A stretch of 38,571 nt of DNA, taken from IMG/VR virus record IMGVR_UViG_3300030372_004948, positions 1 to 38,571 of that record; one strand, written 5' to 3'. Position numbers and translations under genes: made by a program. The DNA comes from a virus (Duplodnaviria; Caudoviricetes). The notes below the pieces were generated by a model. It was not told the DNA's origin. It did not search any database and saw nothing but the letters and a program-made list of their open reading frames with translations. Shown here one piece after another: positions 3,897 to 16,628 of the stretch. Position 1 is the first letter of the stretch; each line of letters opens with the position of its first letter.

Positions 3897-4280
3897 ATGC
3901 AAGTCACCAAGCACTTCAAGCTCAGCGAGTTCGCCTGCAAGGACGGCACCCAGGTGCCCACCAAGTACCAGGGTAACGTCGCCGCGCTCTGTCTCGCGCT
4001 CGAGCACCTCCGAGCTCGGCTGGGAGCGCCCGTTGTGATCATCTCTGCCTACCGCACCAAGGAATACAACAAGCGTGTCGGTGGCGCGTCTAAGTCTCAG
4101 CACCTGACGGGCAAGGCTGCTGACATCCGCATCAGCGGCAAGACACCGGCCGAGGTATCGGCGTGTCTCGAGGAACTCATCGCCGAGGGCACCATCCCGC
4201 AGGGCGGCATTGGCGTGTACCCTGGCTCAAACTTCACGCACTACGACGTGCGCCTTTCTAAGGCTAGGTGGAACGGGTAG
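3897..4280 (+). CDS. Endolysin, peptidase M15A (D-Ala-D-Ala carboxypeptidase-like Zn peptidase)
   Basis: HFKLSEFACKDG, SAYRT..YNKRVGGASKSQHLTGKAADI, FTHYDVR are typical M15A motifs; AGGAG SD. Confidence 0.92.
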   Translation: MQVTKHFKLSEFACKDGTQVPTKYQGNVAALCLALEHLRARLGAPVVIISAYRTKEYNKRVGGASKSQHLTGKAADIRISGKTPAEVSACLEELIAEGTIPQGGIGVYPGSNFTHYDVRLSKARWNG

Positions 4281-4327
4281 TGACCTGCTATGGTCTCTGC
4301 ACTGAATGACTTGCCCCTGGAGGGAGC

Positions 4328-4624
4328 GTGAAACGGTTTGCTTTTGACTTTGTGGCGGCGCTGGCTGTGGGCGTCATCTTGATGCTCTCGATGGGCGGAT
4401 GCGGCAGCACCTACACCTTGAAGAAGGGTGGATGGTCTATCGAGAAGGACGCTGAGAAGGGCACCTGCCTGACCGTGCATGGCGACGGTGACCCGGAGGT
4501 CGTCGTCGTGTGTATTCTGTCAGCCGACCCGGTCAAGCTCCCCAAGAGCGTTCTCGAGGCATCGTGCCCCAAGTGTCCCGAGCCCCCTGCGGCGCCAGAG
4601 GAGAAGCCTGATGGCGCTAAGTGA
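4328..4624 (+). CDS. Putative lipoprotein (possible spanin-like lysis accessory)
   Basis: MKRF + hydrophobic stretch + MGG-C lipobox-like site; Pro-rich C-terminus; follows the endolysin. Confidence 0.6.
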   Translation: MKRFAFDFVAALAVGVILMLSMGGCGSTYTLKKGGWSIEKDAEKGTCLTVHGDGDPEVVVVCILSADPVKLPKSVLEASCPKCPEPPAAPEEKPDGAK

Positions 4625-4853
4625 TTCGGACAAAGACGCTCTCGGGTGGGCGCTGCTGGTGCCGGGCTTCCTTCATATGATGGGTGAGCTGACTGGCGAG
4701 GAAGGGTTCAACGAGGCGGCTGACAAGCTGGCCGAAGTGCCGGTGGAGAAGATCGCCCAGGTGCTTGGCTCGCTCCGTACCGACTACGCCAACATTGAAG
4801 TCGGCACCATGGAGATTGGTGAGGGCGTCGCTGTCGAGATTGTGGACGACTGA
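4611..4853 (+). CDS. Acidic hypothetical protein (80 aa, MALSDSDKD...)
   Basis: ATG at 4611 overlaps the end of the upstream gene with GAGGAG upstream; the track's longer start at 4479 is unlikely. Confidence 0.65.
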   Translation: MALSDSDKDALGWALLVPGFLHMMGELTGEEGFNEAADKLAEVPVEKIAQVLGSLRTDYANIEVGTMEIGEGVAVEIVDD

Positions 4854-4855
4854 GG

Positions 4856-5191
4856 GTGACGGACGACCTACTAGCCCAACTCGTTGACGCTGGTGGTATC
4901 GGTCTGCTCGCAGGCTTTCTTATCTGGCAGCACATTGGCATGCAGAAGCGCCTGGACGGCCTGGTGGCCTCGTTCCAAGAGCAAGTCGATAAGATCAATG
5001 AGTCATACGACGAGCGCATTGAGAAGATGCGTGAGCGCTACGACCTGGTCATCGAAAGCATCAGGTCTGAGTGCAAGGAAGACATCGACCGTGTCACCGA
5101 CCAGCGCGACTCGATACAGGCGGAGCTCGCCATCCTGATTCAGGATATGGGGCGCAGGGTGGACACGCTTGTGAGCAAGCTGTCTGACTAG
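4856..5191 (+). CDS. Holin-like (BhlA/UviB-type) or i-spanin-like membrane protein
   Basis: Single N-terminal TM segment (LVDAGGIGLLAGFLIWQ) followed by a charged coiled coil; in the lysis cassette. Confidence 0.6.
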   Translation: MTDDLLAQLVDAGGIGLLAGFLIWQHIGMQKRLDGLVASFQEQVDKINESYDERIEKMRERYDLVIESIRSECKEDIDRVTDQRDSIQAELAILIQDMGRRVDTLVSKLSD

Positions 5192-5763
5192 TCCCTGAGC
5201 GCGGCTCTGCGCCACCTTTTAAGCACCTTCATACCCTTGGGCGATGTCCCGCTACACCTGGGCTCACCGGCCCTGTCAGGGCGTCTCCAGAAGGGGCCTC
5301 TGTTGATGCGTATCCAGGCGAGCTTCCACCTGTCCCGCACCTTGGGGCAGTAGCGATGCACCGTGCGCTCGGTTGTGACCAGCCTGCCAAGGAATACGTG
5401 CGCGCTGGCGACTGGGTCGTTGCGGTCATGGATGAACTGCCTAGCCCATGGCCACAGCTGAAGCAACCCCACCGCCTTGCCGTTGTCACCGATGGCGCGA
5501 GGGTTGAAGCGTGACTCGTGCGCCGCCTTTGCCAGCACCATGCCGCGTAGGTGTTTGGGGATGCCGGCTAGCACCTCGACGTGTAGAAGGTCCCGAGCCA
5601 TGTGCTCAGTAGCCCCTAGCCTAACGGCCTGGTCGACGTAGTGCTCAATCAGCACCTGCTCTTGAGTGGTGCAGCAGTCTGGGCACCGCTCGCAGTTGTC
5701 TGCGATGTAGGCAGAATGCCAGCTGCCGATTAGCAGCATGGCAGATGTGATGATTGCGCTCAT
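5188..5763 (-). CDS. Lytic transglycosylase (SLT domain) with N-terminal signal-like segment
   Basis: AHESRFNPRAIGDNGKAVGLLQL matches the SLT catalytic ES...GLxQ motifs. Confidence 0.82.
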   Translation of the reverse strand: MSAIITSAMLLIGSWHSAYIADNCERCPDCCTTQEQVLIEHYVDQAVRLGATEHMARDLLHVEVLAGIPKHLRGMVLAKAAHESRFNPRAIGDNGKAVGLLQLWPWARQFIHDRNDPVASAHVFLGRLVTTERTVHRYCPKVRDRWKLAWIRINRGPFWRRPDRAGEPRCSGTSPKGMKVLKRWRRAALRD

Positions 5764-5774
5764 AAGACCTCATT

Positions 5775-5820
5775 AAAAAAGCCCCGGCAACGCGGGAGGA
5801 TAGATCCGCGCTGCCGAGGC
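5775..5820 (-). terminator. Rho-independent terminator after ssb
   Basis: 15-bp stem GCCUCGGCAGCGCGG/CCGCGUUGCCGGGGC with G-U pairs on the minus strand, followed by U6. Confidence 0.85.
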
Positions 5821-5851
5821 CAACTGGGGCTAGACCACTAGCACCCCGACA
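5775..5851 (-). ncRNA. Candidate 3'-UTR-derived antisense sRNA (two hairpins, loops UGGU and AUCUAUCCUC)
   Basis: Hairpin 5826-5847 and terminator loop 5796-5805 are complementary (9-12 nt) to leaders of several early genes. Confidence 0.45.
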
Positions 5852-6256
5852 TTAGAAGGGGATGTCGTCGTCGTTGTCAAAGGGTTGGTTGACCTGAGAC
5901 GCCGGAGCTCCAGCAACCTGACCGCCGTAGCCACCGCTGCTCTTGGTGCGCGCCGTGAGCTTCACCGACGCCTTGCTGACGTTGTTGAACACGCCCTCAC
6001 CCTGACGAGGGGCTTGGTCGTACTCACCGACAACGGTGACGGCGGTGCCACGTTGGGCTTTGTTCATGATCCAGGCCATCTGGCTCTCGGCCCACACGCT
6101 GACGCGGAAGAAGACCGGGCGCTCGGCCCGCTCCCTCCTGTCGTAGCGGCCAACAGCCACGGTGAACTCGACAAACGCCTTGCCGTTGGACGTGCTCTTC
6201 TGCTCCGGGTCCGACGTCAGGTTGCCAGTGATTGTGATGTTGCAGATATCAGACAT
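5852..6256 (-). CDS. ssb: Single-stranded DNA-binding protein
   Basis: NITITGNLTSDPE OB-fold start, FFRVSVW, Gly-rich linker, C-terminal DDDIPF; likely start ATG 6256. Confidence 0.93.
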   Translation of the reverse strand: MSDICNITITGNLTSDPEQKSTSNGKAFVEFTVAVGRYDRRERAERPVFFRVSVWAESQMAWIMNKAQRGTAVTVVGEYDQAPRQGEGVFNNVSKASVKLTARTKSSGGYGGQVAGAPASQVNQPFDNDDDIPF

Positions 6257-6443
6257 GTGACTGCTCCTGTTTGTTGATGAAGTCCTCGACCAGTGACCGG
6301 ACAAACTTGCTCCGGTCTACGTCCTGGGCGAAGGGGTCAGAGTTGCGCCTGCCAGCGTTGACAGACTTGATAGCGCCGTCGAGCTTCGCGATGAAGTCCT
6401 CGGTGACGCGGATATGAAGCACCGTGCGCTTAGGCGTTTCCAT
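6249..6443 (-). CDS. Small ribbon-helix-helix-like DNA-binding protein
   Basis: VLHIRVTEDFIAKLD...DRSKFVRSLVEDF fits the RHH pattern; overlaps both neighbours. Confidence 0.6.
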   Translation of the reverse strand: METPKRTVLHIRVTEDFIAKLDGAIKSVNAGRRNSDPFAQDVDRSKFVRSLVEDFINKQEQSHV

Positions 6444-7125
6444 TCTCAATCCTCCATGCGTCGAAGTCCTGACGCGCTGCGTGGCCTTTGTGTAAGAGCG
6501 CGCCGACCAGACGGTCAGCCTCGTTCTTGGGCATCTCGGAGAGCTTGGGCTGCCCCTTGCTGATGCGCCAGGTGTTGACCATGTTGTAGTCGATGTTGGC
6601 AGCTTCGAGGGTGGGGAACATCCCCTTCATCTTGCCGGCCTTGAAGTCAGGGCTGTGGTTGGCCCGGCGCTTTGCGTCGGCCTCCTTCTTGCGCCACCCC
6701 TTCTTGGTCTGGCCCTCGTGGCCGGTTGATGTCATGGCCCCGTTGCCGTCGTCGTCCTGCACAGCAGGGATGCCGAGGATGGCAGCGATGCAGTAGCGTT
6801 TGGTGTAGCTCATGCCTGAGCCAAACCCGTGCGCGTTCTGACGGTCGGCCAGCACCCTCATTCTCGAGACCAGCTTCTCCCCACTAGTGTGGGCGAGTAT
6901 GGTGATCATCATGTCTCCGTCCATGATGTGAGTGAAGGATAGGCCGAAGCTGTGCGCGCCCTGCGCCGCTTCGAGCACGCTTTCGTAGGATGCAAAGCGC
7001 CCGAAGTTGCTCTTGCTATCCTCGGTGGCCCTCGGCTTGGTCGCTTGGAACTCAGCGAGCGCCTTAAAGAGTTCAGGGCCGCCAAGTCCGACGGCTGCTG
7101 TTGGTGTAGTGGTCTGCTCAGTCAT
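6430..7125 (-). CDS. ERF-family single-strand annealing protein
   Basis: LFKALAEFQ, FASYESVL, ILAHTSGE, GSGMSYTKRYCIAAILGIP..DDDG signature. Confidence 0.92.
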   Translation of the reverse strand: MTEQTTTPTAAVGLGGPELFKALAEFQATKPRATEDSKSNFGRFASYESVLEAAQGAHSFGLSFTHIMDGDMMITILAHTSGEKLVSRMRVLADRQNAHGFGSGMSYTKRYCIAAILGIPAVQDDDGNGAMTSTGHEGQTKKGWRKKEADAKRRANHSPDFKAGKMKGMFPTLEAANIDYNMVNTWRISKGQPKLSEMPKNEADRLVGALLHKGHAARQDFDAWRIENGNA

Positions 7126-7297
7126 TGGTCATCTCCAGTTTGAGCCCGAGGTCGTCGGGCTGGTTGTCGGTTAGCCACTTGGTAAGTGGCAGGTACACGG
7201 TGGTGTGCAGTGGATGGTCAGGGAAGTTGGCGCGCTGTCGCACCAGCGATACCCAGGCGGCGAGTTTGTGGGCCCATGTCATGATGTCGGCACCCAT
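7118..7297 (-). CDS. Hypothetical protein (59 aa, MGADIMTWAHKLAAW...); not in the ORF track
   Basis: Fills the gap between gp157 and erf; ATG directly follows the gp157 stop and its end overlaps the erf start. Confidence 0.6.
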   Translation of the reverse strand: MGADIMTWAHKLAAWVSLVRQRANFPDHPLHTTVYLPLTKWLTDNQPDDLGLKLEMTND

Positions 7298-7852
7298 CTA
7301 CTTGCCCTCCACGACGATGAGGTCCTCGCTCTTGGTGACGAGGATGCCCAGCTGTCCGAGCTCCTCGACGGTGGACGAGCCGTTCCTGATGGCCCGCTTG
7401 ACCATAGCCCTGTTGACCCTGACCGGGGCCTCGAGAAAGTCGCTGGGCTCCCACGTCTCGCCGAGTTCGACGGAGTAGGACGTGCGCTTGTCGAGCCGCA
7501 CGTGCCCGTCCTCGCAGTCGACCTTGCTCTCCCCAGGGTTCGCCTCTTGGTGCGCCAAGAGCAGGTTCTTCATGTAGCCCCGCAGCCTGTCAGCGTCGCC
7601 GGTCCTGCGCTTGGCGATGGTTGCGATGCGTGCAGCCTCGGCCTTGAGGGTCTCGGCCTCGGCCAGCAGTCTGGTGCGCACCGCCCGTATCGACTGCAGC
7701 TTCGACTTGATGTCGGCGTTTGTCGCCTCCACCTCCGCGAGCCAGGCGTCGTATGCCTGCTCATTCACCTCACCATTGGCGTCGGTGATGTCCATAAGCG
7801 CAGCAGCAAGCCGCCGCGCACGTGTTGATATCTCAAAGGACGTGCCGCCCAT
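7298..7852 (-). CDS. Siphovirus Gp157 family protein
   Basis: Coiled coil LKAEAARI..KRR..RLRGYM and C-terminal VNRAMVKRAIRNG; beside erf; GGAGG SD. Confidence 0.8.
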   Translation of the reverse strand: MGGTSFEISTRARRLAAALMDITDANGEVNEQAYDAWLAEVEATNADIKSKLQSIRAVRTRLLAEAETLKAEAARIATIAKRRTGDADRLRGYMKNLLLAHQEANPGESKVDCEDGHVRLDKRTSYSVELGETWEPSDFLEAPVRVNRAMVKRAIRNGSSTVEELGQLGILVTKSEDLIVVEGK

Positions 7853-7867
7853 CGAATCCTCCAGTGG

Positions 7868-7932
7868 TCTAGCTCATCAGTGCCGGGAGACCATCCCCCG
7901 ACAGACGCCCCGGCGAGGGCGTTTCGCCTAGA
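7868..7932 (-). ncRNA. Hammerhead ribozyme, type II
   Basis: Minus strand UCUAGGC-GAAA-CGCCCU(CGCC)GGGGCG-UC^UGUCGGGGGA(UGG)UCUCCCGGCA-CUGAUGA-GCUAGA has the full catalytic core and three stems; predicted cleavage between 7904 and 7903. Confidence 0.9.
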
Positions 7933-8245
7933 AGGGTATGTCGTTGATTGACTCTTCGATCTCCGACGCAGTGGCACCCTTGGGCGTCTCACGCGGGCGC
8001 TCGATGTCAGCGATGACAGTCTCAAGGCCCTCAAGTGTTGTGGCAATTTGATTGAAGCTCGCGGGGGCAACGATGTGCATGTCCCTGCTTCTCCAGCCTG
8101 ACAAGAAGGCCTTGACCTCTCTACGTGCTGCCTTCAGCAACGGCAGGAGTTCTTGCCCCATGGCGTAGCGACCGAAGTCCTCACCAAGGTCGAAGTCATC
8201 GACGCCAGTGGCCCCGTCGCCCAGCAGTGTTTTAATCCCTGACAT
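7928..8245 (-). CDS. Hypothetical protein with SSB-like acidic C-terminus (...INDIPF)
   Basis: ORF in the leftward operon with a G-rich SD, overlapping the upstream gene. Confidence 0.75.
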   Translation of the reverse strand: MSGIKTLLGDGATGVDDFDLGEDFGRYAMGQELLPLLKAARREVKAFLSGWRSRDMHIVAPASFNQIATTLEGLETVIADIERPRETPKGATASEIEESINDIPF

Positions 8246-8414
8246 AGCTACCCCCTATCGCTTCCGCGAGGTCTGGAAAGTGGTCTACCGGCGGCTTCCC
8301 GCCGAGCTGTTGAAGCAGTGTGCCCAGGGCATCCACTGCGAACTCTACGTCCCCGGCAATGTCGAGGTCGGCCATGATGTCGGCGATGCGTGCCGCGATC
8401 TCTGCGTTGCTCAT
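8232..8414 (-). CDS. Hypothetical protein (60 aa, MSNAEIAARIAD...)
   Basis: ATGA overlap with the upstream gene gives a likely start at 8414. Confidence 0.65.
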   Translation of the reverse strand: MSNAEIAARIADIMADLDIAGDVEFAVDALGTLLQQLGGKPPVDHFPDLAEAIGGSYVRD

Positions 8415-8761
8415 GACTGCACCCGCGCCGGCTTGGTCACGTGCTTGCTGTGCGCGTGCCATGACTTGCCGGTCTCATCGCATACAACACGGTGAACCCG
8501 TTTCACGTAATGGTCGCCGGCCCTGACGGTGCCGTCCTTGTGGTCCCGCCGGCATACGTGGCGCGTCGTGCTGACGTGCTTGGTCCACTCCTTGTCCCAG
8601 AAGTCGTACTCGTACCCGCAGTGGGCGAGCCTGTCGAAGAGGTTGGTGTCCTCTTCGATGTTGAACCCCTCCATGGGGTGCTCAGGCTCCGGTGGTGAGC
8701 AATCGCCGTATCCGGGTAGGGTTCTGCCGCCAATCGGTCGGCCTTGGTATGTCCATCCCAT
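8411..8761 (-). CDS. Hypothetical protein (116 aa)
   Basis: AGGAG SD with a promoter directly upstream. Confidence 0.75.
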   Translation of the reverse strand: MGWTYQGRPIGGRTLPGYGDCSPPEPEHPMEGFNIEEDTNLFDRLAHCGYEYDFWDKEWTKHVSTTRHVCRRDHKDGTVRAGDHYVKRVHRVVCDETGKSWHAHSKHVTKPARVQS

Positions 8762-8791
8762 GATGGTCTCCTGTGTAGTGGTCTGGGGTCG

Positions 8792-8819
8792 AGTGTAGTC
8801 ACCGTCTGCCTGCTGTCAA
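8792..8819 (-). promoter_or_regulatory. Sigma70-like leftward promoter
   Basis: TTGACA-N16-TACACT in the intergenic gap with T-rich sequence upstream. Confidence 0.65.
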
Positions 8820-8864
8820 TACAAAAGACGGGCGGCGACCACACAAACGGGCAAGAAAAGTAAA

Positions 8865-9647
8865 TTAGGCGAGCGCTCTAGCGCTTAGCTCGCGGAATGC
8901 GAGCGCTGCTTGGGCGGGCACGACGCCGTTGCCGAGTAAGCGTATGCGGTCCACCCGATCGGGAGCCCCATGAGAGCCTCCACAAACTCCGGGTTGAGGA
9001 CCACCGGCACGGGTCCACCGTCGCCATCCTTCGGTATCGTCGGGACTTGGCGGGAACGCATGGCATCCGTTAGGCTGGTGCCGGGGTGCATCACCCCCGT
9101 TTTGGTCGTGTGACGGCCAGAGCTCCGACAGTCCGAGACCGCTGGAGTAGGCCAAGAGGAAGAGCCGGTTTCGACGGTGCGGTGCTCCAGCGTCGGACGC
9201 TTTGAAACAACCCCACTCTGCATCGTACCCCATAGCGGCAAGGTCTCGGAGCATGACGGAGAGCCCCCGCTTGCGGAGTCCGGGCACGTTTTCGAGGAAG
9301 ACGATCGGGGCTTGGCACTCCCCGATAATGCGAGCGACATCTGCCCAGATCCACCGCTCGTCGTCGGTGTGCTTGCGCTTTCCGGCGGTTGAGAAGGGCT
9401 GACAAGGCGGCCCCCCGACGAGCATATCAGGGCGCCAACCTCTGCCGTCGAAGGTGGTGACGTCAGTCCAGATAGGAGCCTGAGCCAAGGCGCCCGCTTC
9501 CATCTGCGCGACCATGTTTGCGATGACGAAGGCTTCCCTCTCCACCATACAGACCGCGCGAGCGCCTCCGATAGCTGCGGCGACACCTCTCTCGAGCCCG
9601 CCGTATCCGCTGAAGAGGCTGAGGATTGTGGTGGTACGTGTGCCCAT
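8865..9647 (-). CDS. DNA (cytosine-5) methyltransferase, alpha-like chain (motifs I-VIII and X)
   Basis: SLFSGYGG (I), GGPPCQPFS (IV), LENV (VI), PHRRNRLF (VIII), LLGNGVVP (X); likely start ATG 9647. Confidence 0.9.
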   Translation of the reverse strand: MGTRTTTILSLFSGYGGLERGVAAAIGGARAVCMVEREAFVIANMVAQMEAGALAQAPIWTDVTTFDGRGWRPDMLVGGPPCQPFSTAGKRKHTDDERWIWADVARIIGECQAPIVFLENVPGLRKRGLSVMLRDLAAMGYDAEWGCFKASDAGAPHRRNRLFLLAYSSGLGLSELWPSHDQNGGDAPRHQPNGCHAFPPSPDDTEGWRRWTRAGGPQPGVCGGSHGAPDRVDRIRLLGNGVVPAQAALAFRELSARALA

Positions 9648-9652
9648 GACAT
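8885..9652 (-). CDS. Nested alternative-frame C5-MTase beta-like chain (motif IX); start 9652 or 9340
   Basis: Second frame open over almost the whole gene, containing WPTP and LNPEFVEALMGLPIGWT, the motif IX missing from the main frame. Confidence 0.7.
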   Translation of the reverse strand: MSWAHVPPQSSASSADTAGSREVSPQLSEALARSVWWRGKPSSSQTWSRRWKRAPWLRLLSGLTSPPSTAEVGALICSSGGRLVSPSQPPESASTPTTSGGSGQMSLALSGSAKPRSSSSKTCPDSASGGSPSCSETLPLWGTMQSGVVSKRPTLEHRTVETGSSSWPTPAVSDCRSSGRHTTKTGVMHPGTSLTDAMRSRQVPTIPKDGDGGPVPVVLNPEFVEALMGLPIGWTAYAYSATASCPPKQRSHSAS

Positions 9653-9891
9653 TAGTCCCCCTCTGTGGTGGTGATGTTGATAGCGTCAATGACCCCTTCA
9701 AGAGTCGGTCGGAGCATGGAGCATAGCCCAGGCGCGTGGAGTTCAGCCACGCTCCACGACCCCGCCAAGGCGTGGCCACGGTTGAAGTGAACCGAGACGG
9801 GATCGCCCGGCACGTGTTGGCGCACCGCTGCAACGTCTGAAGCCCTGAAGGCGAGCGTCTGGCCGTGTTTTGTGGTGATGGTGATCAGCAT
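9652..9891 (-). CDS. Hypothetical protein (79 aa)
   Basis: GAGGAGG SD; tightly packed in the operon. Confidence 0.7.
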   Translation of the reverse strand: MLITITTKHGQTLAFRASDVAAVRQHVPGDPVSVHFNRGHALAGSWSVAELHAPGLCSMLRPTLEGVIDAINITTTEGD

Positions 9892-9894
9892 GGT

Positions 9895-10359
9895 CTAGCC
9901 CTCCTCTGTGGTGGCTTTGGTGATGGTCTCGGCTATGAACGCACGCAGGCGCTCAGGGTCGAGGTCGCCCGTGTCGGGGTCGATGAACCTGTCCCTGTCG
10001 TGCCCCTGCTGAACTCCGGTCCAACCTGCGCCGTCGGCAGTGTACAGGCTCACAAACTCGGCAGCCCATTTGAGCGCGTGGAGTAGGTCCGGCGCTGCGT
10101 TTTCTAGTCTGGCGGACGCGTCGTCATTCACATGCAGCTCAAGCGATTCTACTGAGAACTCAAAGGAATCGTCAGTCCAGTCGCAGTACCCGTCTTCAAT
10201 CTCTACTTCTGCACTATCAACGCAATCTTGAAGCGTTGTCAGATCCTTAGCCATTCGTTCTGCCTTGCGCTCCCAGCCATCACCCCCGGATAGGGAGATG
10301 AAGTCCGCTTTGACTGAGATTTCGCCGTAGACTGGGATGGTAAAAGTGTGCTCTAGCAT
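9895..10359 (-). CDS. Acidic hypothetical protein (154 aa; contains the AAPDLLHAL motif common in phage early proteins)
   Basis: GAGGA SD; operon position. Confidence 0.75.
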   Translation of the reverse strand: MLEHTFTIPVYGEISVKADFISLSGGDGWERKAERMAKDLTTLQDCVDSAEVEIEDGYCDWTDDSFEFSVESLELHVNDDASARLENAAPDLLHALKWAAEFVSLYTADGAGWTGVQQGHDRDRFIDPDTGDLDPERLRAFIAETITKATTEEG

Positions 10360-10380
10360 TGCTCTATCCTCTGAAAAACC

Positions 10381-10444
10381 GCGCAGAATCGCACGCCTGG
10401 CGCCCCCTCCACCGGAGAGAGCACCCGCGCGTGAGAGCCTACGC
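10381..10444 (-). other. Long imperfect intergenic RNA hairpin (RNase III-like site or attenuator)
   Basis: Interrupted stem with core GGUGCUCUCUCC/GGAGGGGGCGCC and several G-U pairs, starting at the upstream stop codon, followed by GGUUUUU. Confidence 0.55.
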
Positions 10445-11479
10445 AGCTACCGCAAAATCGCTCGCGATAGCTTCGCTCAGCTGCTCCTGTGTGGTCGCCT
10501 TCACTCGGAGCCCTACCACAAAGGGCCCCTTCTTAGGTGCGCGCGTGAACCACAGATCGTCAATATCACCGTCGATCACGTCGTACCCTTCCCAAGTAGC
10601 AGGCAAGGGCAGCTTGTTCCCGTCTTCATCGCGTGCCTTATCGGGCACGTCGAAGACCACGCAGACGCCATGCCCTTGGGCTAGCATCTTGAGCGTGAGC
10701 GCTGTGCGTCCATCCTTTCGAGAGTAGACTCGTCGCACAAAGTCGTCGCGTCGCATGTTGGACGTGATTGCAGTGTAGTCGTAGAAGTCGACGGTGGATG
10801 AGTGTCGCTGTGCTAGGTAGCCGGCTAACTCCGCGCAATCTTGTGCCACGTTCGCACGAAAGGCGAGAAGCGCTCCTTTGCGCGCAGCGCTCATCCACAA
10901 TCGCTCGATCTCGCGATTCAAGAGGGTAAGAAACACGTCCAGATTGGCGAGCATGGCCAGTGTTCGCCCCACTCGGGCGATCTCCGATGAACTGAGGCGA
11001 CCTTGGCCGGTCTGCGAACCGACGCATCCGAAGACGCATGCCGGCGTGGCACCACGGCATGCGTTCCAATCGCCTTGCACGTAGGCGCTAGCCTCGCGCG
11101 CCGTCGCCATCGTGAGACCACGGTTAACAAAGCCCGATCGCTCTTTGGATGCCTTGTCCAGTTTGGTCTGGCTGGAGGTGTGGATCTGGCGCGTACCGTG
11201 GAGGATGAGCGCTGCCTGCCACACTACCGCTTCGCGTTTGGTCATCCGGCATTGGTGCGACATCGTGACGCGCCAGCGCGGCCCGATGAAATCGGGAGCG
11301 CTCTGAATGCCGTTGCGCGAGTGAATGCGCATCAATGCATCTTCGATCGCCTCTTGGACGTCGGACAAGAGAGGAAAGGGGGCGAGATGGGCGACTAGCT
11401 CATCATAGGCCTTTTGAACGTAGGTCGTGGGGGTGAGGTACTTGTTAAACGTGGTCTGGTGTGGTGTAAGCTTGCTCAT
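10439..11479 (-). CDS. GP88-like protein (Cys-cluster, radical-SAM-like phage family)
   Basis: CRGATPACVFGC, FRANVAQD, DFYDYT, VIDGDIDDLWF, VVGLRVK match my recollection of the GP88 family. Confidence 0.75.
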   Translation of the reverse strand: MSKLTPHQTTFNKYLTPTTYVQKAYDELVAHLAPFPLLSDVQEAIEDALMRIHSRNGIQSAPDFIGPRWRVTMSHQCRMTKREAVVWQAALILHGTRQIHTSSQTKLDKASKERSGFVNRGLTMATAREASAYVQGDWNACRGATPACVFGCVGSQTGQGRLSSSEIARVGRTLAMLANLDVFLTLLNREIERLWMSAARKGALLAFRANVAQDCAELAGYLAQRHSSTVDFYDYTAITSNMRRDDFVRRVYSRKDGRTALTLKMLAQGHGVCVVFDVPDKARDEDGNKLPLPATWEGYDVIDGDIDDLWFTRAPKKGPFVVGLRVKATTQEQLSEAIASDFAVAA

Positions 11480-11528
11480 TGTGGTCTATCCTCTGCGCAT
11501 CCCTGCGCTGCTAGTGGTCTGTGGTCGT

Positions 11529-11587
11529 GCATAGGCGCACGGTGTAGAGCCCGAGCGATGCTCAGGCGCTACCCCTTGCCTCTATGC
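11529..11587 (-). other. Long imperfect intergenic RNA hairpin (RNase III-like site)
   Basis: Nested stems GCAUAG/CUAUGC, GCA/UGC, GUAG/CUAC, GCCUGAGC/GCUCGGGC starting at the upstream stop codon. Confidence 0.55.
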
Positions 11588-12091
11588 TGCCCAATTGCGC
11601 TTGGTCGGTATGAAGTGACCAATCGGCCATTCCTGCACCGTCTTATGGACGCGCCCTGTCGATGTGCTGACGCGCCGCACTTTGATGAGGCCTGAGCGCT
11701 TCGAGACACCTTCGTAGACGTAGTGCCGCCAACCACACGAGCGAGCCCATCCCTTGTCCCGGTATAGGCTCTGACCCTTGGCGTACGCGCCATTCTCAGC
11801 GATAGCCTCTGACAGCGCGAGCAGGTCGTCTGTTGAGGCTATGATCTCTGCCCCACCATCACCACAACCACATATAAACGTGGTCTCGTTGTGGTCGTAT
11901 CCACGCGACCTGCTGTCGTCGTCGACTTCGACCCAGTAACCGAGCGCTTCAAGGTCTCGGATGATGCGCCAGGGAAGGCGCGCGCTTGCTCTGATCCCGA
12001 TTGTGCTTTGTGGCCAGTGTGGAAGCCGGTCGTCTCTGATCTCAATGCCGCGACGTGCGATCTCGATTGCAATGTTGTGCAAGGTCTTCAT
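11582..12091 (-). CDS. Hypothetical protein (169 aa)
   Basis: GGAGA SD; operon position. Confidence 0.75.
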   Translation of the reverse strand: MKTLHNIAIEIARRGIEIRDDRLPHWPQSTIGIRASARLPWRIIRDLEALGYWVEVDDDSRSRGYDHNETTFICGCGDGGAEIIASTDDLLALSEAIAENGAYAKGQSLYRDKGWARSCGWRHYVYEGVSKRSGLIKVRRVSTSTGRVHKTVQEWPIGHFIPTKRNWAA

Positions 12092-12115
12092 GGTCTGTTC
12101 TCCGTGGTGGTGGTG

Positions 12116-12427
12116 CTAGTAAGAGGGTCCGATAAGCCAAACAAGGCGCTGCAGCTGACTGTCATCCGAAAGGCACGGGACACGGTCGACGCCGTCTTCT
12201 CTCAACGCCTCGCCAATGCAGACGGCGCTGATCGTCAAGACACCGTCTGAGTCGAGGTATGAGAGCAGGTGCTCAGATACGTGGTATCGGTCTCCAATCC
12301 ATTGGAGCGCTTCGACCTCAGCGTCAGTGGGACGGTAAAGCATCCCGTATGAGTAGACTGAGCACTCCATGACGCCTTGGAGGTCGTCTGTGCTCATCGC
12401 TGCGATTGTCTTGCTTGTGTGAATCAT
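12116..12427 (-). CDS. Hypothetical protein (103 aa, MIHTSKTIAAM...), first gene of the leftward operon
   Basis: AGGAG SD before ATG 12427; promoter upstream. Confidence 0.75.
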   Translation of the reverse strand: MIHTSKTIAAMSTDDLQGVMECSVYSYGMLYRPTDAEVEALQWIGDRYHVSEHLLSYLDSDGVLTISAVCIGEALREDGVDRVPCLSDDSQLQRLVWLIGPSY

Positions 12428-12453
12428 GGTCTCTCCTGATTGGTTGTGAGACC

Positions 12454-12483
12454 ACAGTAAATCCTGCGACAACACAGCGTCAA
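12454..12483 (-). promoter_or_regulatory. Sigma70-like leftward early promoter
   Basis: TTGACG-N18-TACTGT with T-rich upstream sequence at the head of the operon. Confidence 0.5.
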
Positions 12484-12536
12484 CACAATAACCAAGGAAA
12501 AGTGAAAATGGAGACCAGTGCAACGTTCACGGTTCG

Positions 12537-12565
12537 TCGTCAAAATGGCGGAACAGTGGTAGACT
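12537..12565 (+). promoter_or_regulatory. Possible rightward promoter with extended -10
   Basis: TCGTCA-N17-TAGACT with a TGn extension. Confidence 0.4.
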
Positions 12566-12591
12566 CTGAGCAATCGTGATCAGGGAGCAGT

Positions 12592-12981
12592 GTGACGTTT
12601 ATGCAGGTCAGGCCAGAAGACGTGAGAGATTACGGTTCAAGCGCCGCGATCGTGCTCTCAGTGTTGCGTTCACAGGGCTGCACAGCGTCGATGCCAGTGC
12701 TGGTTCAATACGCTGCGATAGGGCGCCTGTGTGGACTCGACCAGCGCTCAGTCAGGCGGGGTATCGACAGGCTCACTGAGGGCAAGGCTATCAGCGTCTC
12801 GCGGTATCGTCAGCAGCGCTCTCTGATGGTCAAGCTGAGACACTGCGCCGAGGTCGTGACCAGAACGGCAGCAGATGGACAGAACGTCACGACGCAAGTC
12901 GACGTCGAATCACTCGCTCAAGAATCCCCCCCATTAAGGCGATTAGACTCCGTAAGGTCGTTGCTTGACGCCCTTGGCTGA
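12592..12981 (+). CDS. Winged helix-turn-helix protein (replication-initiator-like N-terminal domain)
   Basis: AAIVLSVL...QYAAIGRLCGLDQRSVRRGIDRLTEGKAISV fits a wHTH; AGGGAG SD. Confidence 0.65.
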   Translation: MTFMQVRPEDVRDYGSSAAIVLSVLRSQGCTASMPVLVQYAAIGRLCGLDQRSVRRGIDRLTEGKAISVSRYRQQRSLMVKLRHCAEVVTRTAADGQNVTTQVDVESLAQESPPLRRLDSVRSLLDALG

Positions 12982-13065
12982 CGCCCCCGGTCGCCATGGT
13001 CAGGCCGTAGCCAACGCGGCTTTGTGATCCGGGCGCGGTTAATGGCCCCGTGCTCAAAAATACGG

Positions 13066-13103
13066 GCGCGGATGTTGAAGACGCGCGGATGTTGAAGACG
13101 CGC
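13066..13103. repeat. 17-bp tandem repeat GCGCGGATGTTGAAGAC x2
   Basis: Exact copies at 13066-13082 and 13083-13099, plus a partial GCGC. Confidence 0.9.
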
Positions 13104-13640
13104 CTATCTTGATTACGCGCGAGGCTCGAGTGGCGAAGAAGAAAGACCCTCCAGGCCGTGGGGGGTGATCGTCCCTTGCCCCCGTGGCGATTGCACCAAA
13201 CACACACCTCCGATCGCTCGCAAATTTTGAGCTCGAGCCCTTAGGGCACCCCCGATGCGTACCAGCACACCGGGGGCAGTCTCAGTGCGTTGGTGCACAC
13301 AAAGACAGCGCGAGCCGGAGAACAAGGTAAAGAGAGTCACCCCGGCCCTCGCTAGCAGTCCGCCCGGCGGAAGCGAGCTTCCAAGGCGGCGTTGCCGACG
13401 CGAGGGTAACATGTCGACTTAAAGTGGTCAACTTTAGAGCAGCATAGCGTTTCGCTGCTTCTGCTTCTCTCTTTCTCATTCAAAAAAGGGAGAGAGAGAA
13501 GTGGGAATAGCTGGGGCCATGTGTTCAGCCTGGTGTAGTCCAGTGCGAGAACAAGGCGCACGCTGTTTTCCGCCGCTAGTATAAGAACAGAGTCAGACTC
13601 GGGCTGGCGCCCTCGGCTGGATGAGCTGTTCATGCGTGAA

Positions 13641-13706
13641 TAAAAATCTCTCGCTCGCTCATCCGCTACGCTCTGCTGCGCGTTTACGCTTCGCTCGAGA
13701 TTTTTA
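13641..13706. repeat. 10-bp inverted repeat enclosing CGCT repeats
   Basis: TAAAAATCTC (13641-13650) and GAGATTTTTA (13697-13706). Confidence 0.8.
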
Positions 13707-13712
13707 CCCGGA

Positions 13713-13740
13713 TTGACCCATTTGTCTAGTTGACTACTGT
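13713..13740 (+). promoter_or_regulatory. Sigma70-like rightward promoter
   Basis: TTGACC-N16-TACTGT; shares TGACTAC and the 16-bp spacer with the 8792-8819 promoter. Confidence 0.5.
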
Positions 13741-13793
13741 TTCAATATCGCGCAACATGGACCAAGACCACATGCACAAAGAGGATAGTGCTT

Positions 13794-14537
13794 ATGAGCG
13801 ACTCACCGGGTTCGGTGCGTTCTAAGATCGCAGCCTTACCACTTGACCTTGTCAGCCCAGTACGCGGCAGAGCAGACGCCTTTGGCGATGTTCTTCCTGT
13901 GTCTAGCCTTAAAGGACGCGCGCTTCTTCTTCATGCGCTCCGTCTCTCCGGCCTTAGGCTTCCCAGCGGTACTGGCGCCTTGCTCTCCGAACCGGATCGT
14001 CTTCAGTTTACCGTTGCAGTTGGCGACGACGATATGACTCTGCTCAGGATGCCCAGGCGTGCGCTTGGGTTTGCCTACTCCGCTGACTCCTGCGGCCTTG
14101 AGCTTCCGCTTAGCGGCGCTCTGCCGTTCTTTAGCCATCTACTCGTCACCCATAGAGTCGATGAGACCCTTGAGCTCCGCGTCGTAGGCTTTCCCTTCGT
14201 CGGTCTTGGGCTTCCAGGAATCGTACATGTTGACGAGCTTCTGCTTGATCTTGCCCTTGGCGACCTTCTTGCGCGCCTTGCTGCGTTCAGGGGAGGGTCC
14301 ACCGATGACGATGGTGAGTCCCATGGGTTTACCGTGCGGGTTATCGGAGTGCTTTTTCTTCCCGTAGTCCATTCAGCTCACCTTCTTCCTTGCTGCTTTC
14401 ATGCGTTGGTAGATGTGGTTGACCAGCGCGTAGTTCTTGTTAGAGCCGCGTTTCCCTGCGGCGTACTTGGCTTTACTCCAGAGCTTCTCATCCCGCTTGG
14501 TTTTGACCAGGTTGCTAGGCATCAGGAGTCCTCGTGA
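13794..14537 (+). CDS. Possible translated antisense ORF (247 aa) covering three minus-strand genes
   Basis: Promoter plus GAGGA SD 8 nt before the ATG; its TGA overlaps the MTase GTG; the protein has no recognisable features. Confidence 0.3.
   Translation: MSDSPGSVRSKIAALPLDLVSPVRGRADAFGDVLPVSSLKGRALLLHALRLSGLRLPSGTGALLSEPDRLQFTVAVGDDDMTLLRMPRRALGFAYSADSCGLELPLSGALPFFSHLLVTHRVDETLELRVVGFPFVGLGLPGIVHVDELLLDLALGDLLARLAAFRGGSTDDDGESHGFTVRVIGVLFLPVVHSAHLLPCCFHALVDVVDQRVVLVRAAFPCGVLGFTPELLIPLGFDQVARHQESS
13836..14138 (-). CDS. Small basic conserved phage protein (KPKRTP.HP..SH...IRFG...FKARH...SAAYWADKVKW family)
   Basis: Motif set I recognise from uncultured phage proteins; function unknown. 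Confidence 0.85.
   Translation of the reverse strand: MAKERQSAAKRKLKAAGVSGVGKPKRTPGHPEQSHIVVANCNGKLKTIRFGEQGASTAGKPKAGETERMKKKRASFKARHRKNIAKGVCSAAYWADKVKW
14139..14372 (-). CDS. Small basic hypothetical protein (77 aa)
   Basis: Abuts both neighbours with zero spacing. Confidence 0.75.
   Translation of the reverse strand: MDYGKKKHSDNPHGKPMGLTIVIGGPSPERSKARKKVAKGKIKQKLVNMYDSWKPKTDEGKAYDAELKGLIDSMGDE
14373..14522 (-). CDS. Small basic protein (49 aa, MPSNLVKTKRDEKLWSKAK...); not in the ORF track
   Basis: GAGGA SD, ATG at 14522, stop immediately followed by the next ATG. Confidence 0.75.
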   Translation of the reverse strand: MPSNLVKTKRDEKLWSKAKYAAGKRGSNKNYALVNHIYQRMKAARKKVS

Positions 14538-15181
14538 TCGGCGGGGTCAATCAATACTACCCTACCCCCCCAGAGGCTGTCTTGCCCTTGCTCGACTGGT
14601 TCCTCCGTCGAGGCGTAACGGCCCTCGGGGATGTCGTAGATCCAGCTGCTGGAATGGGCGCTCTGCCACTGTGGTTGGCTCCCCTCGGCGCACACTGGAG
14701 CGTCTACGATATCGACGGACGCTTCCGAGACACTCTCGAGGGACAGGCGGGCATACGCTCGGTGAGCATTAATGATAGTCTCACGCGGCTCTGGCCACCA
14801 CACAGTCATGTCGTTGCAAACCCACCCTACGGGCGTGAGCTCGTCCGGTTCGTCCACCGCATCGAGGAACACTGCCGGTATTGGCACACCCTGGGAGCAG
14901 TGCTCACCAGGGTCACTTGGTGGGGTGAGGGTGACCGTGGTCGTGTCTACAAGCCCGATGTCCTCCTCTGGATCGAGGGCAGGCTTTCGTTTACTGCGGA
15001 CGGTCATTCGGACACCTCGTCTCATTGCTGGGCCATATGGCTTCCACAGCCTAGTGATACCACACGGATAGAGTGGACGCCGAGAGGTAAGCCCACTGTT
15101 GAGCAGCAGAAAGAGCACCGAGCCATGCTCGGCATACCCGATAACCAGATAGAGCTTTTCCAGGAGAATAGAGATGACTGA
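14534..15181 (+). CDS. DNA N6-adenine (amino) methyltransferase
   Basis: YYPTP, VDPAAGMGAL (motif I), VVANPPY (motif IV); AGGAG SD. Confidence 0.88.
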   Translation: MIGGVNQYYPTPPEAVLPLLDWFLRRGVTALGDVVDPAAGMGALPLWLAPLGAHWSVYDIDGRFRDTLEGQAGIRSVSINDSLTRLWPPHSHVVANPPYGRELVRFVHRIEEHCRYWHTLGAVLTRVTWWGEGDRGRVYKPDVLLWIEGRLSFTADGHSDTSSHCWAIWLPQPSDTTRIEWTPRGKPTVEQQKEHRAMLGIPDNQIELFQENRDD

Positions 15182-15452
15182 ACTGACCATCGTTAAAGGC
15201 AGCGCAACCGCAACACCCGGACAGCAGCTGGTATGGAAAGCCATAGCGGTCGCCACATCTGCGTGGGTAGACGCAGGTGACGCGCTGACAGACGCGCACG
15301 ACGGAGAAGATGTCGACCTCGTCGCTGCGCTTGAGTCCACTTACGCGCGACTCGGAATGGCTATCGAGGAGCTACAGGCTATCTCGGAGAAGCTCGACAA
15401 CCTCTTCCAGGCAGCCGACGACGTCATCAGCACAATCCCTGGTGCGAAATGA
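15174..15452 (+). CDS. Hypothetical helical protein (92 aa)
   Basis: AGGAG SD; overlaps both neighbours. Confidence 0.7.
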   Translation: MTELTIVKGSATATPGQQLVWKAIAVATSAWVDAGDALTDAHDGEDVDLVAALESTYARLGMAIEELQAISEKLDNLFQAADDVISTIPGAK

Positions 15453-16363
15453 AGATGCGCGAAATCTTTGAACGAGCCAGCAGGGGCCATGATACCGTCG
15501 AAGTTGGCGCCGCACGCTGGCCAGTGCCAAAGTCGGTGGCTCACTTGTGTACCCCAGAAGCAACCTTATCGACATTACATGGTTTGCGACTAGGAGAAGA
15601 CATATGCGCTTGTGGGCACCCGGTGGAGGCATCCTCCCTCTGTTCAGCGTGCGGTCGCCCTTACCAAACCCCTTGCTGCACTGAAGGGTGCGACGAATGG
15701 GTACACCCAGAGCCAAAAAGCGGCGCAGGGTGGTACCCGCCACCAAGCCAATGCAAGGCATGCACCGCTAAAGCCGAAAGAGCTCTGCGAGAAAGCCGTC
15801 TCAACTACGTCCCAAGGCGGCTTCTTGAGGCCTCTGCGGAATATGAGCGCCGAACTGAGCGAGAACCCGTAGACCAGGCGCTCCACAGCTGGATTAACGC
15901 CGACATGAACGACTCAATATGGGTCTCGGGGCCGAGAAAGGCCGGAAAATCCACCGCTGCGGCTCGTGCAGTTGCGAAACTGGTCATGAATGAGCGCGTA
16001 AAATGCGTGATGTGGCTCGAATATGAGGACTTCGTCAGCGCAGCAAAGCGATGCTACCTCGATGACAACGCCAATCAGTGGAAAATCATCGATATGGCCA
16101 TGCACGCAGAGTTGCTGGTACTAGATGATGTGTTTCCACAGGTCAGAAAGACCCCAAAGGGCAAGATATTGGGGGTCGAGCGCATGAGCGCGCATGTCGC
16201 GCAGACTTTCACTGACGTTCTGCGAAAAAGGCTGCACAATGGCCGGCCAACGCTGCTGACATCCACCCATACGGCCGAACAAGCGCTCGGTCACATGGGT
16301 GAACATGTTCTATCCTGGTGGCAGGGGGAGGGTATCGATGCCTGCATTAACCAAGAAGCCTAA
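15449..16363 (+). CDS. DnaC/IstB-like AAA+ ATPase (helicase loader) with Cys-rich N-terminus
   Basis: Walker A GPRKAGKS, Walker B LLVLDD, RPTLLTS; several CxC/CxxC pairs. Confidence 0.8.
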   Translation: MKMREIFERASRGHDTVEVGAARWPVPKSVAHLCTPEATLSTLHGLRLGEDICACGHPVEASSLCSACGRPYQTPCCTEGCDEWVHPEPKSGAGWYPPPSQCKACTAKAERALRESRLNYVPRRLLEASAEYERRTEREPVDQALHSWINADMNDSIWVSGPRKAGKSTAAARAVAKLVMNERVKCVMWLEYEDFVSAAKRCYLDDNANQWKIIDMAMHAELLVLDDVFPQVRKTPKGKILGVERMSAHVAQTFTDVLRKRLHNGRPTLLTSTHTAEQALGHMGEHVLSWWQGEGIDACINQEA

Positions 16364-16628
16364 ACGCGCTGGCCCGCTGACTCTTGGCAGCTATGTCAGG
16401 GAACTCAGGGCTGAAAACAAGGTTACTCTGCGAACCCTGTCCAAGCAGACTGGGATCAGCGTCGCATCACTGTTTCGACTCGAGCGGGGAGACCATGTCC
16501 CAAGCATACAGAGGGATATCGACGCGCTAGATAAGCTCTGGATTGTGCTCGGTGGCGACATGAACCAACTGCTGTACCTCTCTAGGAGGTGTCCTGTGTG
16601 TGAAGGGACGGGCAGAATCAGGGGTTGA
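16338..16628 (+). CDS. XRE-family HTH regulator with C-terminal CPVCEGTG
   Basis: LGSYVRELRAENKVTLRTLSKQTGISVASLFRLERG; GGAGG SD before ATG 16338. Confidence 0.85.
   Translation: MPALTKKPKRAGPLTLGSYVRELRAENKVTLRTLSKQTGISVASLFRLERGDHVPSIQRDIDALDKLWIVLGGDMNQLLYLSRRCPVCEGTGRIRG

Follow-up and report, generated by a model that had tools for sequence, protein, structure and literature searches.

A conserved two-hairpin RNA behind the ssb gene of a phage carries loops complementary to tags at early start codons: a candidate multi-target antisense RNA

Results

Genome setting of the element

The window analyzed here is the entire stretch of 38,571 nucleotides (38.6 kb), a complete phage record bounded by direct terminal repeats. 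Its leftward early operon (12427-5852) includes the GP88, methylase, gp157, ERF and ssb genes, and the rightward unit contains dam-like, dnaC-like, HTH, terminase, capsid and portal genes. Neither integrase or partition genes nor an antirepressor were found among the 45 proteins scanned with Pfam and the 24 scanned with PHROGs. No close cultured relative was present in the phage collection, where the capsid protein matched four records at about 33% identity over 23% of its length and blastn with the element returned only 24-30-nt matches to the ssb tail. The element lies directly behind ssb and comprises the following features.

5852..6256, minus strand: ssb (PF00436), carrying a predicted promoter in its tail
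5775..5846, minus strand: candidate small RNA of about 70 nt, made of hairpin 1, a short linker, terminator hairpin 2 and a U tail; predicted start at about 5844-5846
5826..5846, minus strand: hairpin 1, with loop UGGU at 5837-5834
5839-5832, minus strand: hairpin 1 seed AGUGGUCU, complement of AGACCAC(U)/AGACCAU(G)
5780..5821, minus strand: hairpin 2, an intrinsic terminator stem
5805-5796, minus strand: 10-nt loop of hairpin 2, AUCUAUCCUC, complement of GAGGAUAG(A)

Several smaller features of the genome were recorded on the way. The ORF at 7928-8245 (minus strand), before the hammerhead described below, ends in an SSB-like acidic tail, INDIPF, with DIPF or DVPF in six relatives; judged by its sequence, this tail is a possible mimic of the SSB C-terminus. 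Irregular long hairpins lie between early genes at 10381-10442 and 11529-11587 (both minus strand), with tagged leaders directly after each; the module at 10381-10442 is present in up to three repeats in relatives and resembles an RNase III-type processing site. The methylase-like gene (8885-9652, minus strand) starts at ATGTCATGG with two overlapping start frames. In relatives the methylase is an ORF of about 335 aa in another frame, and the copy in the window may be frameshifted. The gap between the two transcription units contains strong inverted repeats (13452-13513 and about 13640-13710) and short direct repeats (13066-13100), which are possibly origin or terminus signals.

A structured RNA conserved at the 3' end of ssb

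The original prediction described a minus-strand RNA behind the ssb stop, formed by a hairpin with a UGGU loop and a terminator. Both hairpins fold in this way (-45.9 kcal/mol, z -6.4, 0/200 shuffles). Relatives were gathered via ERF, the capsid protein, a 59-aa marker protein (without a match in the ESM Atlas), an SLT-like protein and DNA patterns; they belong to one clade and are not independent samples. We aligned 12 distinct copies of the element, every one directly behind an ssb stop. In the stems 97.9% of 235 cells were paired, compared with 38-48% in slid controls, and 7 of the 20 pairs were changed on both sides, a count that none of 500 shuffles equaled but that is no probability because the aligned sequences are related. 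All five pairs of hairpin 1 were 100% paired (two changed on both sides), and five pairs of hairpin 2 were changed on both sides. What stayed fixed was loop 1 with its closing pairs (AGUGGUYU; 7/8 seed columns invariant in 12 rows) and UAUCCU in loop 2, while the flanks averaged 66% identity. The alignment held 30 G.U cells versus a single A.C cell, which identifies the minus strand as the functional RNA and rules out the plus strand. By its pattern of substitutions, the alignment thus shows a minus-strand RNA fold in which the stems co-vary and the loops do not change, and we regard it as very likely from this comparison that the element at 5775-5846 is a structured RNA.

A model built from the alignment (R1) gave 14 strong matches in 63 sources, all at the 3' end of ssb, and no strong match in three loci of a sister clade (L106, L108 and L117). 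Pattern and relative searches turned up no relative with altered loops; 10 of the 17 loci returned by one search were chance matches, and one candidate for such a relative, L120, proved to be unrelated. Rfam contained nothing for the element, its sole match being the type II hammerhead at 7863-7929. We also considered that hairpin 1 might be a relic of a hammerhead stem I and rejected this, as the 5' likeness is confined to the window, relatives differ and only the UGGU loop is shared.

A predicted promoter in the ssb tail

The last codons of ssb contain a sigma70-like sequence with an 18-bp spacer.

5875..5880, minus strand: -35 box TTGACA, within the ssb codons F-D-N (TTT GAC AAC)
5851..5856, minus strand: -10 box TCTAAT, read across the last Phe codon, the TAA stop and the T that follows

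The pattern TTGAC-N18-TAAT was present in the ssb tail of 10/10 element-bearing rows. In all ten the codon before Asp was TTT, ATT or GTT although the residue varies between Phe, Ile and Val, and these codons account for only 46%, 22% and 24%, respectively, of the usage for their residues. The ssb stop was likewise always TAA followed by T (10/10 rows), the -10 box of one relative (L104) reading TTTAAT. A strict form of the pattern occurs three times in the genome, at the two early promoters and in the ssb tail; among viral sequences, 3 of 9 matches to the promoter pattern fell in unrelated phages without the RNA. Transcription starting 6-7 nt past the -10 box would coincide with the first pairs of hairpin 1. 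The -10 box does not have the usual A at position 2, and the promoter is missing from the scanner list because the scanner demands that base.

This bears on the form in which the RNA is made. The original prediction assumed a stable fragment released from the 3' end of the early message, and the conserved promoter favors instead an independent RNA of about 70 nt. The active species could also be the polycistronic early message at its 3' end, acting by cis fold-back or as a processed fragment, with translation continuing until the terminator has been transcribed. Such a species would suit the position of the element, which directly follows the ssb stop and has the terminator of the operon at its end, the presence in the early mRNA of a hammerhead and of long irregular hairpins resembling processing sites, and the atypical -10 box. 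However, the promoter bases are kept through amino-acid changes and aim at the first base of hairpin 1, which makes independent transcription likelier than a processed fragment, and several element-bearing relatives are without the hammerhead. Together with the separate transcript of the rightward leader (see below), this leads us to rate the mRNA 3' end as unlikely to be the active species. With regard to the class of 3'-UTR-derived trans-acting sRNAs, which have the intrinsic terminator of an mRNA and arise by processing or from an internal promoter, the terminator and the promoter-like motif are both conserved and the element of the relative G001 is without a U tail. Metatranscriptome X1 yielded four short contigs within 4000-16500, all outside the element, and X2 yielded none, which is uninformative on transcription.

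Loop complements are concentrated at early start codons

Translation initiation regions (TIRs) were defined as -45..+20 around each start, with starts called by script and a few corrected by hand, and a match as a perfect complement of at least 8 nt. The sites considered below are as follows.

7107..7115, minus strand: loop-1 target in the first codons of ERF, at +11..+19 of the CDS
7863-7873, minus strand: loop-1 target within the hammerhead, the ribozyme's 3' AGACCA
8279-8287, minus strand: loop-1 target 34-42 nt upstream of its start, within another ORF
8776..8784, minus strand: loop-1 target at the predicted transcript 5' end of the second early promoter (8819-8792)
9891..9901, minus strand: loop-1 target GGGCUAGACCA, extending to the AUG
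10363..10371, minus strand: loop-2 target, Shine-Dalgarno sequence GAGGAUAGA, -8.4 kcal/mol net
11481..11520, minus strand: bipartite GP88 leader with AGACCACUAGCA, a small hairpin and GAGGAUAGACCAC, -11.0 kcal/mol net
12091..12120, minus strand: leader with ACUAGCACC and AGACCAUG, the site at 12112-12120 spanning the stop codon upstream
12427..12483, minus strand: first early promoter, TTGACG-N18-TACTGT (conserved-pattern match), and leader ending in GAGACCAUG

All nine complementary sites claimed beforehand were recovered on the minus strand with the same positions and lengths, and AGACCAUG sites at 12427 and 12091 had been overlooked. The proposed enrichment at starts also held in a check that was set in advance: 5775-5851 matched 8 of the 14 early TIRs, a number reached by 0/2000 dinucleotide shuffles. 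No other 77-nt segment of the minus strand did as well, the best non-overlapping one matching 5/14. Within the early region of the window, 11 of 13 copies of AGACC[AG][CT] fell inside TIRs, which make up 13.7% of that region (binomial p 2e-8). The same motif was found inside start regions in 8/11 cases in G001, 10/15 in L104, 7/8 in L094, 11/12 in L095, 11/16 in L098 and 7/9 in L099, against an expected 13-15%; it was not significant in L105 (3/7) and L106 (3/6). At rightward genes the loop-1 tag occurred once among 26 in the window and at 0/19 in G001.

When the 7-mers of 86 pooled early leaders were ranked without reference to the RNA, TAGACCA, AGACCAT and AGACCAC came out on top, with AGAGGAT and GGATAGA among the first 16. 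When successive 7-mers of the RNA were compared with 90 leaders, peaks appeared only at the two loops (26 and 10), stem 7-mers scoring 0-3 except for the 3' arm of hairpin 1 (9-12). Either tag was present at 57/75 free-standing early starts versus 7/37 translationally coupled ones (7/7 versus 2/7 in the window), and both tags stood together in 8 distinct leaders from 5 genomes. In L105 the RNA is present with tags at only 2/7 free starts; in L106 it is absent with tags at 4/13. These counts show, as far as sequence distribution goes, that the loop complements are private tags of free-standing early starts and the rightward leader, structural genes having few of them. In ERF the tag lies within the coding sequence, at +10..+17, and its AG ACC A was kept while the residue was Gln, Glu or Lys, in 7/7 element-bearing ERF starts inspected and in L102; it was missing in L074 and in the sister-clade locus L106.

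A very unlikely reading, in our judgment, is that an ordinary terminator and shared gene-boundary sequences, such as recombination cassettes or a favored ribosome-binding context, coincide here with no regulation at all. The early region is indeed mosaic, with repeated junctions (for instance GGAGGGCTAGACCATG) and a repeated intergenic hairpin, ERF and gp157 are near, the PeSL cassettes provide a precedent (available text of PMC2839356), and L106 is tagged at those 4/13 free starts without having the RNA. Boundary sequences would nevertheless fail to account for hairpin 1, for two loops that stay fixed while their stems change, for the conserved promoter, for the tag within the ERF codons and for structural genes being nearly free of tags.

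The tags and hairpin 1 could also be DNA operators for a phage repressor, encoded either by the gene at 6249-6443 or by the HTH-like gene near 16338 in the rightward unit (phrog_3, E 1.7e-4). Tags do lie near three promoters and hairpin 1 is palindromic. The gene at 6249-6443 (minus strand, between ERF and ssb) encodes a conserved 64-aa protein, 39% identical to the G001 copy, which looks ribbon-helix-helix-like by eye only; it belongs to no Pfam or PHROGs family and found no sequence match in the PDB. The tags, however, are oriented by strand to start codons, most of them have no promoter nearby, and the stems tolerate G.U but not A.C, so that we find DNA operators scarcely credible.

Net binding energies were computed with hairpin opening charged and for single helices only. 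Under these terms loop-2 sites reached -8 to -11 kcal/mol at GAGGAUAGA, loop-1-only sites ranged from +1.8 to -6.7 kcal/mol and 5 of the 14 early TIRs had no favorable site; early TIRs bound better than 25 rightward TIRs (Mann-Whitney p 0.005). Target sites were mostly open, with an opening cost of mostly 0.2-4 kcal/mol. This last point weighs against the idea that pairing activates or stabilizes early messages instead of repressing them, since at sites that are already open there is little structure for activation to relieve. Some sites lie upstream of the Shine-Dalgarno sequence or near predicted 5' ends (8776-8784, 11509-11520), and in IsrK a phage RNA is known that activates by way of a coupled leader ORF (PMC4825925, in its available part), but most sites overlap the Shine-Dalgarno sequence, the AUG or the first codons, and activation appears highly improbable to us.

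The expectation that loops and leader motifs are conserved together in relatives was borne out in part. The loops are fixed and the tags recur at starts; no compensatory change between loop and target was seen, and such co-variation is invisible because the loops do not vary. Tag variants with a pairing-preserving C-to-U change mostly concerned the U of AUG, and 20 near-matches break pairing.

A hammerhead ribozyme is an optional client

One of the loop-1 sites lies within a ribozyme.

7863..7929, minus strand: type II hammerhead before gp157 (Rfam RF02276, 61.8 bits), with catalytic core and three stems present; activity predicted

Type II hammerheads contain a loop-tail pseudoknot. Here the stem-I loop UGGUCU complements the ribozyme's own 3' AGACCA and was unchanged in 7 loci, and site 7863-7873 consequently has an explanation in cis as well. 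The hammerhead was not found in L104, L098, L099 or L092 (region covered) nor in L103 (partial coverage), that is in 5 of 6 element-bearing or related loci. A possible link between the RNA and the ribozyme, raised in the original prediction, is at most optional: because the hammerhead is absent from the RNA-bearing L104, L098, L099 and G001, it is an optional client outside the core circuit.

A tagged leader on the rightward transcript

Both tags also occur on the plus strand, at 13765-13788, a site that had escaped the original prediction.

13730..13796, plus strand: promoter-like site (TTGACT), then AGACCAC (13765), GAGGATAG (13781) and ATG (13794), all read from the sequence
13794..14537, plus strand: leader ORF of 247 aa, running antisense across three small genes of the leftward strand and ending in a TGA that overlaps the start of dam (GTGA)

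The targets had been proposed to be genes of the RNA's own operon. Early starts do carry matching tags, but the restriction to one operon fails because the rightward leader ORF carries tags. Since this leader is on another transcript, it could be reached only in trans, which argues against an RNA confined to the end of the early mRNA. A start led by GAGGATAG was present at the same position in the window, G001, L094, L104 and L070, the G001 leader having the loop-2 tag without the loop-1 tag.

The frame that ends at the dam start was open for 267-397 codons at 7 distinct loci with differing leftward genes, two further contigs being incomplete. From codon use, a stop-free antisense run of 229 codons is expected about 0.03 times; zero-gap gene junctions preserve the rightward frame by themselves. 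The tagged ORFs of L104 and L070, 20 and 249 aa long respectively, stop at GTGA, and another open frame continues to dam; the open stretch before dam in L061 and L062 yielded no tagged start in frame. The three small lysine/arginine-rich genes on the opposite strand (13836-14522, minus) abut in one frame, and relatives swap the genes and keep the frame. We rejected the rightward ORF as a conserved protein, because synonymous changes follow the leftward frame (6/7 and 23/30 versus 0/7 and 7/30 in the rightward frame). Judged from these substitutions, it seems to matter as a ribosome track and not as a protein.

A sister clade lacks both loops

Three loci related to the element-bearing ones differ in their ssb, which is followed by a similar GC-rich stem whose larger loop contains CCACAA.

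L106:8260-8332, L108:2509-2580 and L117:2928-2981, behind ssb: sister-clade RNA with a 21-45-nt loop containing CCACAA (plus CAUCGACA in two)

This stem is the homologous terminator stem, and hairpin 1 is absent. Joint loss of both loops and of most tags, as read from these sequences, weakly fits an antisense model, being one contrast in which 4/13 free starts are still tagged. The L106 leader motif ACCCACAAC has the same sense as the CCACAA loop, and a complement to it was sought and not found.

Such a sense copy misfits the antisense model and keeps a decoy alive as a rival. The tags would then bind a protein or a host RNA as A/C-rich translation enhancers, with the 3' RNA as decoy or anti-decoy and its complementarity to mRNA as a secondary matter. 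A/C-rich leaders occur clade-wide, the sister-clade loop holds the leader motif in sense, like a sponge, and GcvB silences ACA motifs, which are enhancers of translation (PMC3879156, in the available text). In the element-bearing clade, however, the two loops match the two tags as exact reverse complements, and the strand that would show the tags in sense is excluded by the G.U pattern, and we consider a decoy quite unlikely.

Proposed mechanism

The reading we prefer, with a probability of about 0.6, is a multi-target antisense repressor of the c4/CI type, which would be transcribed from its own promoter and act in trans. Widened to include a processed or cis form, the proposal of an antisense repressor becomes likely. 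The part of the original prediction that is supported is a structured RNA, kept in relatives, with fixed loops complementary to tags that are concentrated at early start codons.

In this antisense model, host sigma70 polymerase would fire from TTGACA-N18-TCTAAT and stop at hairpin 2. Given an independent promoter, the RNA would build up from the start of infection, regardless of the early mRNA. The open 10-nt loop would bind GAGGAUAG Shine-Dalgarno sites directly, and the UGGU loop would kiss ACCA, with pairing then zipping on into the stem of that loop so as to mask the AUG, the first codons or the A/C-rich leader. Pairing in trans at tagged starts would block ribosome entry, bipartite leaders (GP88 and the rightward leader) being held by both loops, and coupled downstream genes (ssb, the small regulator-like gene and the methylase) would follow their lead gene. 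With the rightward leader ORF blocked, dam and the dnaC-like gene would become uncoupled, in the way that c4 acts via icd-ant. The net result would be a brake without protein, serving as a delay timer in lytic growth or as immunity if the phage has a carrier state.

If this is true, one 70-nt RNA without a repressor protein runs the early regulon and the entry into replication, and newly acquired genes would join the regulon simply by carrying the tag. The pair of a two-seed RNA and its tags would also make a compact tool for coordinated translational control.

Comparison with known systems

To our knowledge the known phage antisense RNAs c4, CI, sar, OOP and aQ have one target each. The literature that we searched, with sparse coverage of subscription journals and with the candidate-RNA tables of PMC10690425 outside the search, contained no report of this RNA or of any multi-target anti-tag RNA; related motifs were also sought in the available parts of PMC2864571 and PMC10690425. 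The original prediction that no described phage circuit resembles this one was too strong, because c4 of P1/P7 and CI of P4 are antisense RNAs that pair by loops with their own phage's messages.

According to the available portions of PMC12197685 and PMC8198154, c4 is a short, phage-encoded RNA with loop-exposed complementarity to ribosome-binding regions of its own mRNA. The loops of the present RNA likewise complement ribosome-binding regions of the phage's own mRNA, a likeness to c4 (RF01695) at the sequence level only, and both systems would control a small upstream ORF, here the leader ORF coupled to dam. The coupled ORF precedes a dam-like gene, however, and not the icd-ant antirepressor operon, and c4 has one target whereas about ten predicted targets in two operons, and probably an own promoter, are found here. 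C4 RNAs have a closing stem around internal hairpins (alignment rows in the supplement of PMC2864571, as available), unlike the two tandem hairpins here, which end in a terminator and are without a closing stem. The RF01695 covariance model gave no match at the gathering score, nor at E<=10 over 5600-14000. The element is not a C4 member.

As described in the available part of PMC4825925, P4 CI is processed from its target transcript and causes termination, and IsrK of Gifsy-1 activates, the stop of the orf45 leader ORF overlapping the anrP start. The present RNA would resemble P4 CI in being a same-strand antisense RNA on replication genes, but its putative targets, instead of flanking it, lie 1.3-8 kb off, one of them on another transcript, the RNA gene being about 8 kb from the replication leader. 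The rightward leader resembles IsrK-orf45-anrP in that the stop of a leader ORF overlaps the next start. With GcvB (PMC3879156, available text) the RNA shares one seed for many leaders and A/C-rich sites beside the Shine-Dalgarno sequence; unlike GcvB, a host RNA that depends on Hfq and has an unstructured seed, it is encoded by a phage, its seed is capped by a stem and it has a second, anti-Shine-Dalgarno loop.

The closest parallel to the tags themselves is found in the start-associated sequences (SAS) of Cluster K mycobacteriophages. The available text of PMC3203893 describes SAS as an asymmetric tag that marks free-standing non-structural genes at their starts and notes a single reversed copy in four genomes; whether RNA or protein binds the tag was left undecided in that 2011 paper. 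Our tags are similarly asymmetric repeats in one orientation at the starts of free-standing non-structural genes. They differ in that the 13-bp Cluster K consensus is absent, that there are two tags (AGACCA[C/U] and GAGGAUAG) instead of one, and that the shared part is only GGAUAG. We examined the SAS of cultured phages for a hairpin.

L124:28800-28900 (CrimD ~58800-58900), and L122 and L125-L128: reversed-SAS hairpin of Cluster K1-type mycobacteriophages with invariant loop, mostly in unannotated intergenic DNA

The stretches from Anaya, CrimD, Shaobing, Nutello, Validus and LastHope each contained 9-15 sense SAS and exactly one reversed copy, and in 6/6 Anayavirus genomes this copy fell in a loop of 10-11 nt that caps a long hairpin. 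In Validus an annotated ORF runs over the hairpin, and Pixie has 18 tags and no reversed copy. The Anayavirus hairpin matched 126 phage records; 90/90 of its cells pair, with co-variation not above shuffles (84/500). Both its loop (CCUCCUAUCC) and the top of its stem (GCGCGG/CCGCG) are similar to those of hairpin 2, a likeness in sequence and layout.

We therefore offer, tentatively and as a conjecture with the odds somewhat against it, a wider view in which phages would have widespread, so far undescribed regulons of tag and anti-tag that include the Cluster K SAS, and in which the ssb-borne RNA would be a master switch that silences the early operon and gates the replication operon via a leader ORF maintained solely as a ribosome track opposite interchangeable genes. 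The reversed SAS in a hairpin loop is a concrete candidate partner for the unexplained SAS of cultured phages, and the same tag-in-loop layout in six cultured phages makes these sequences testable.
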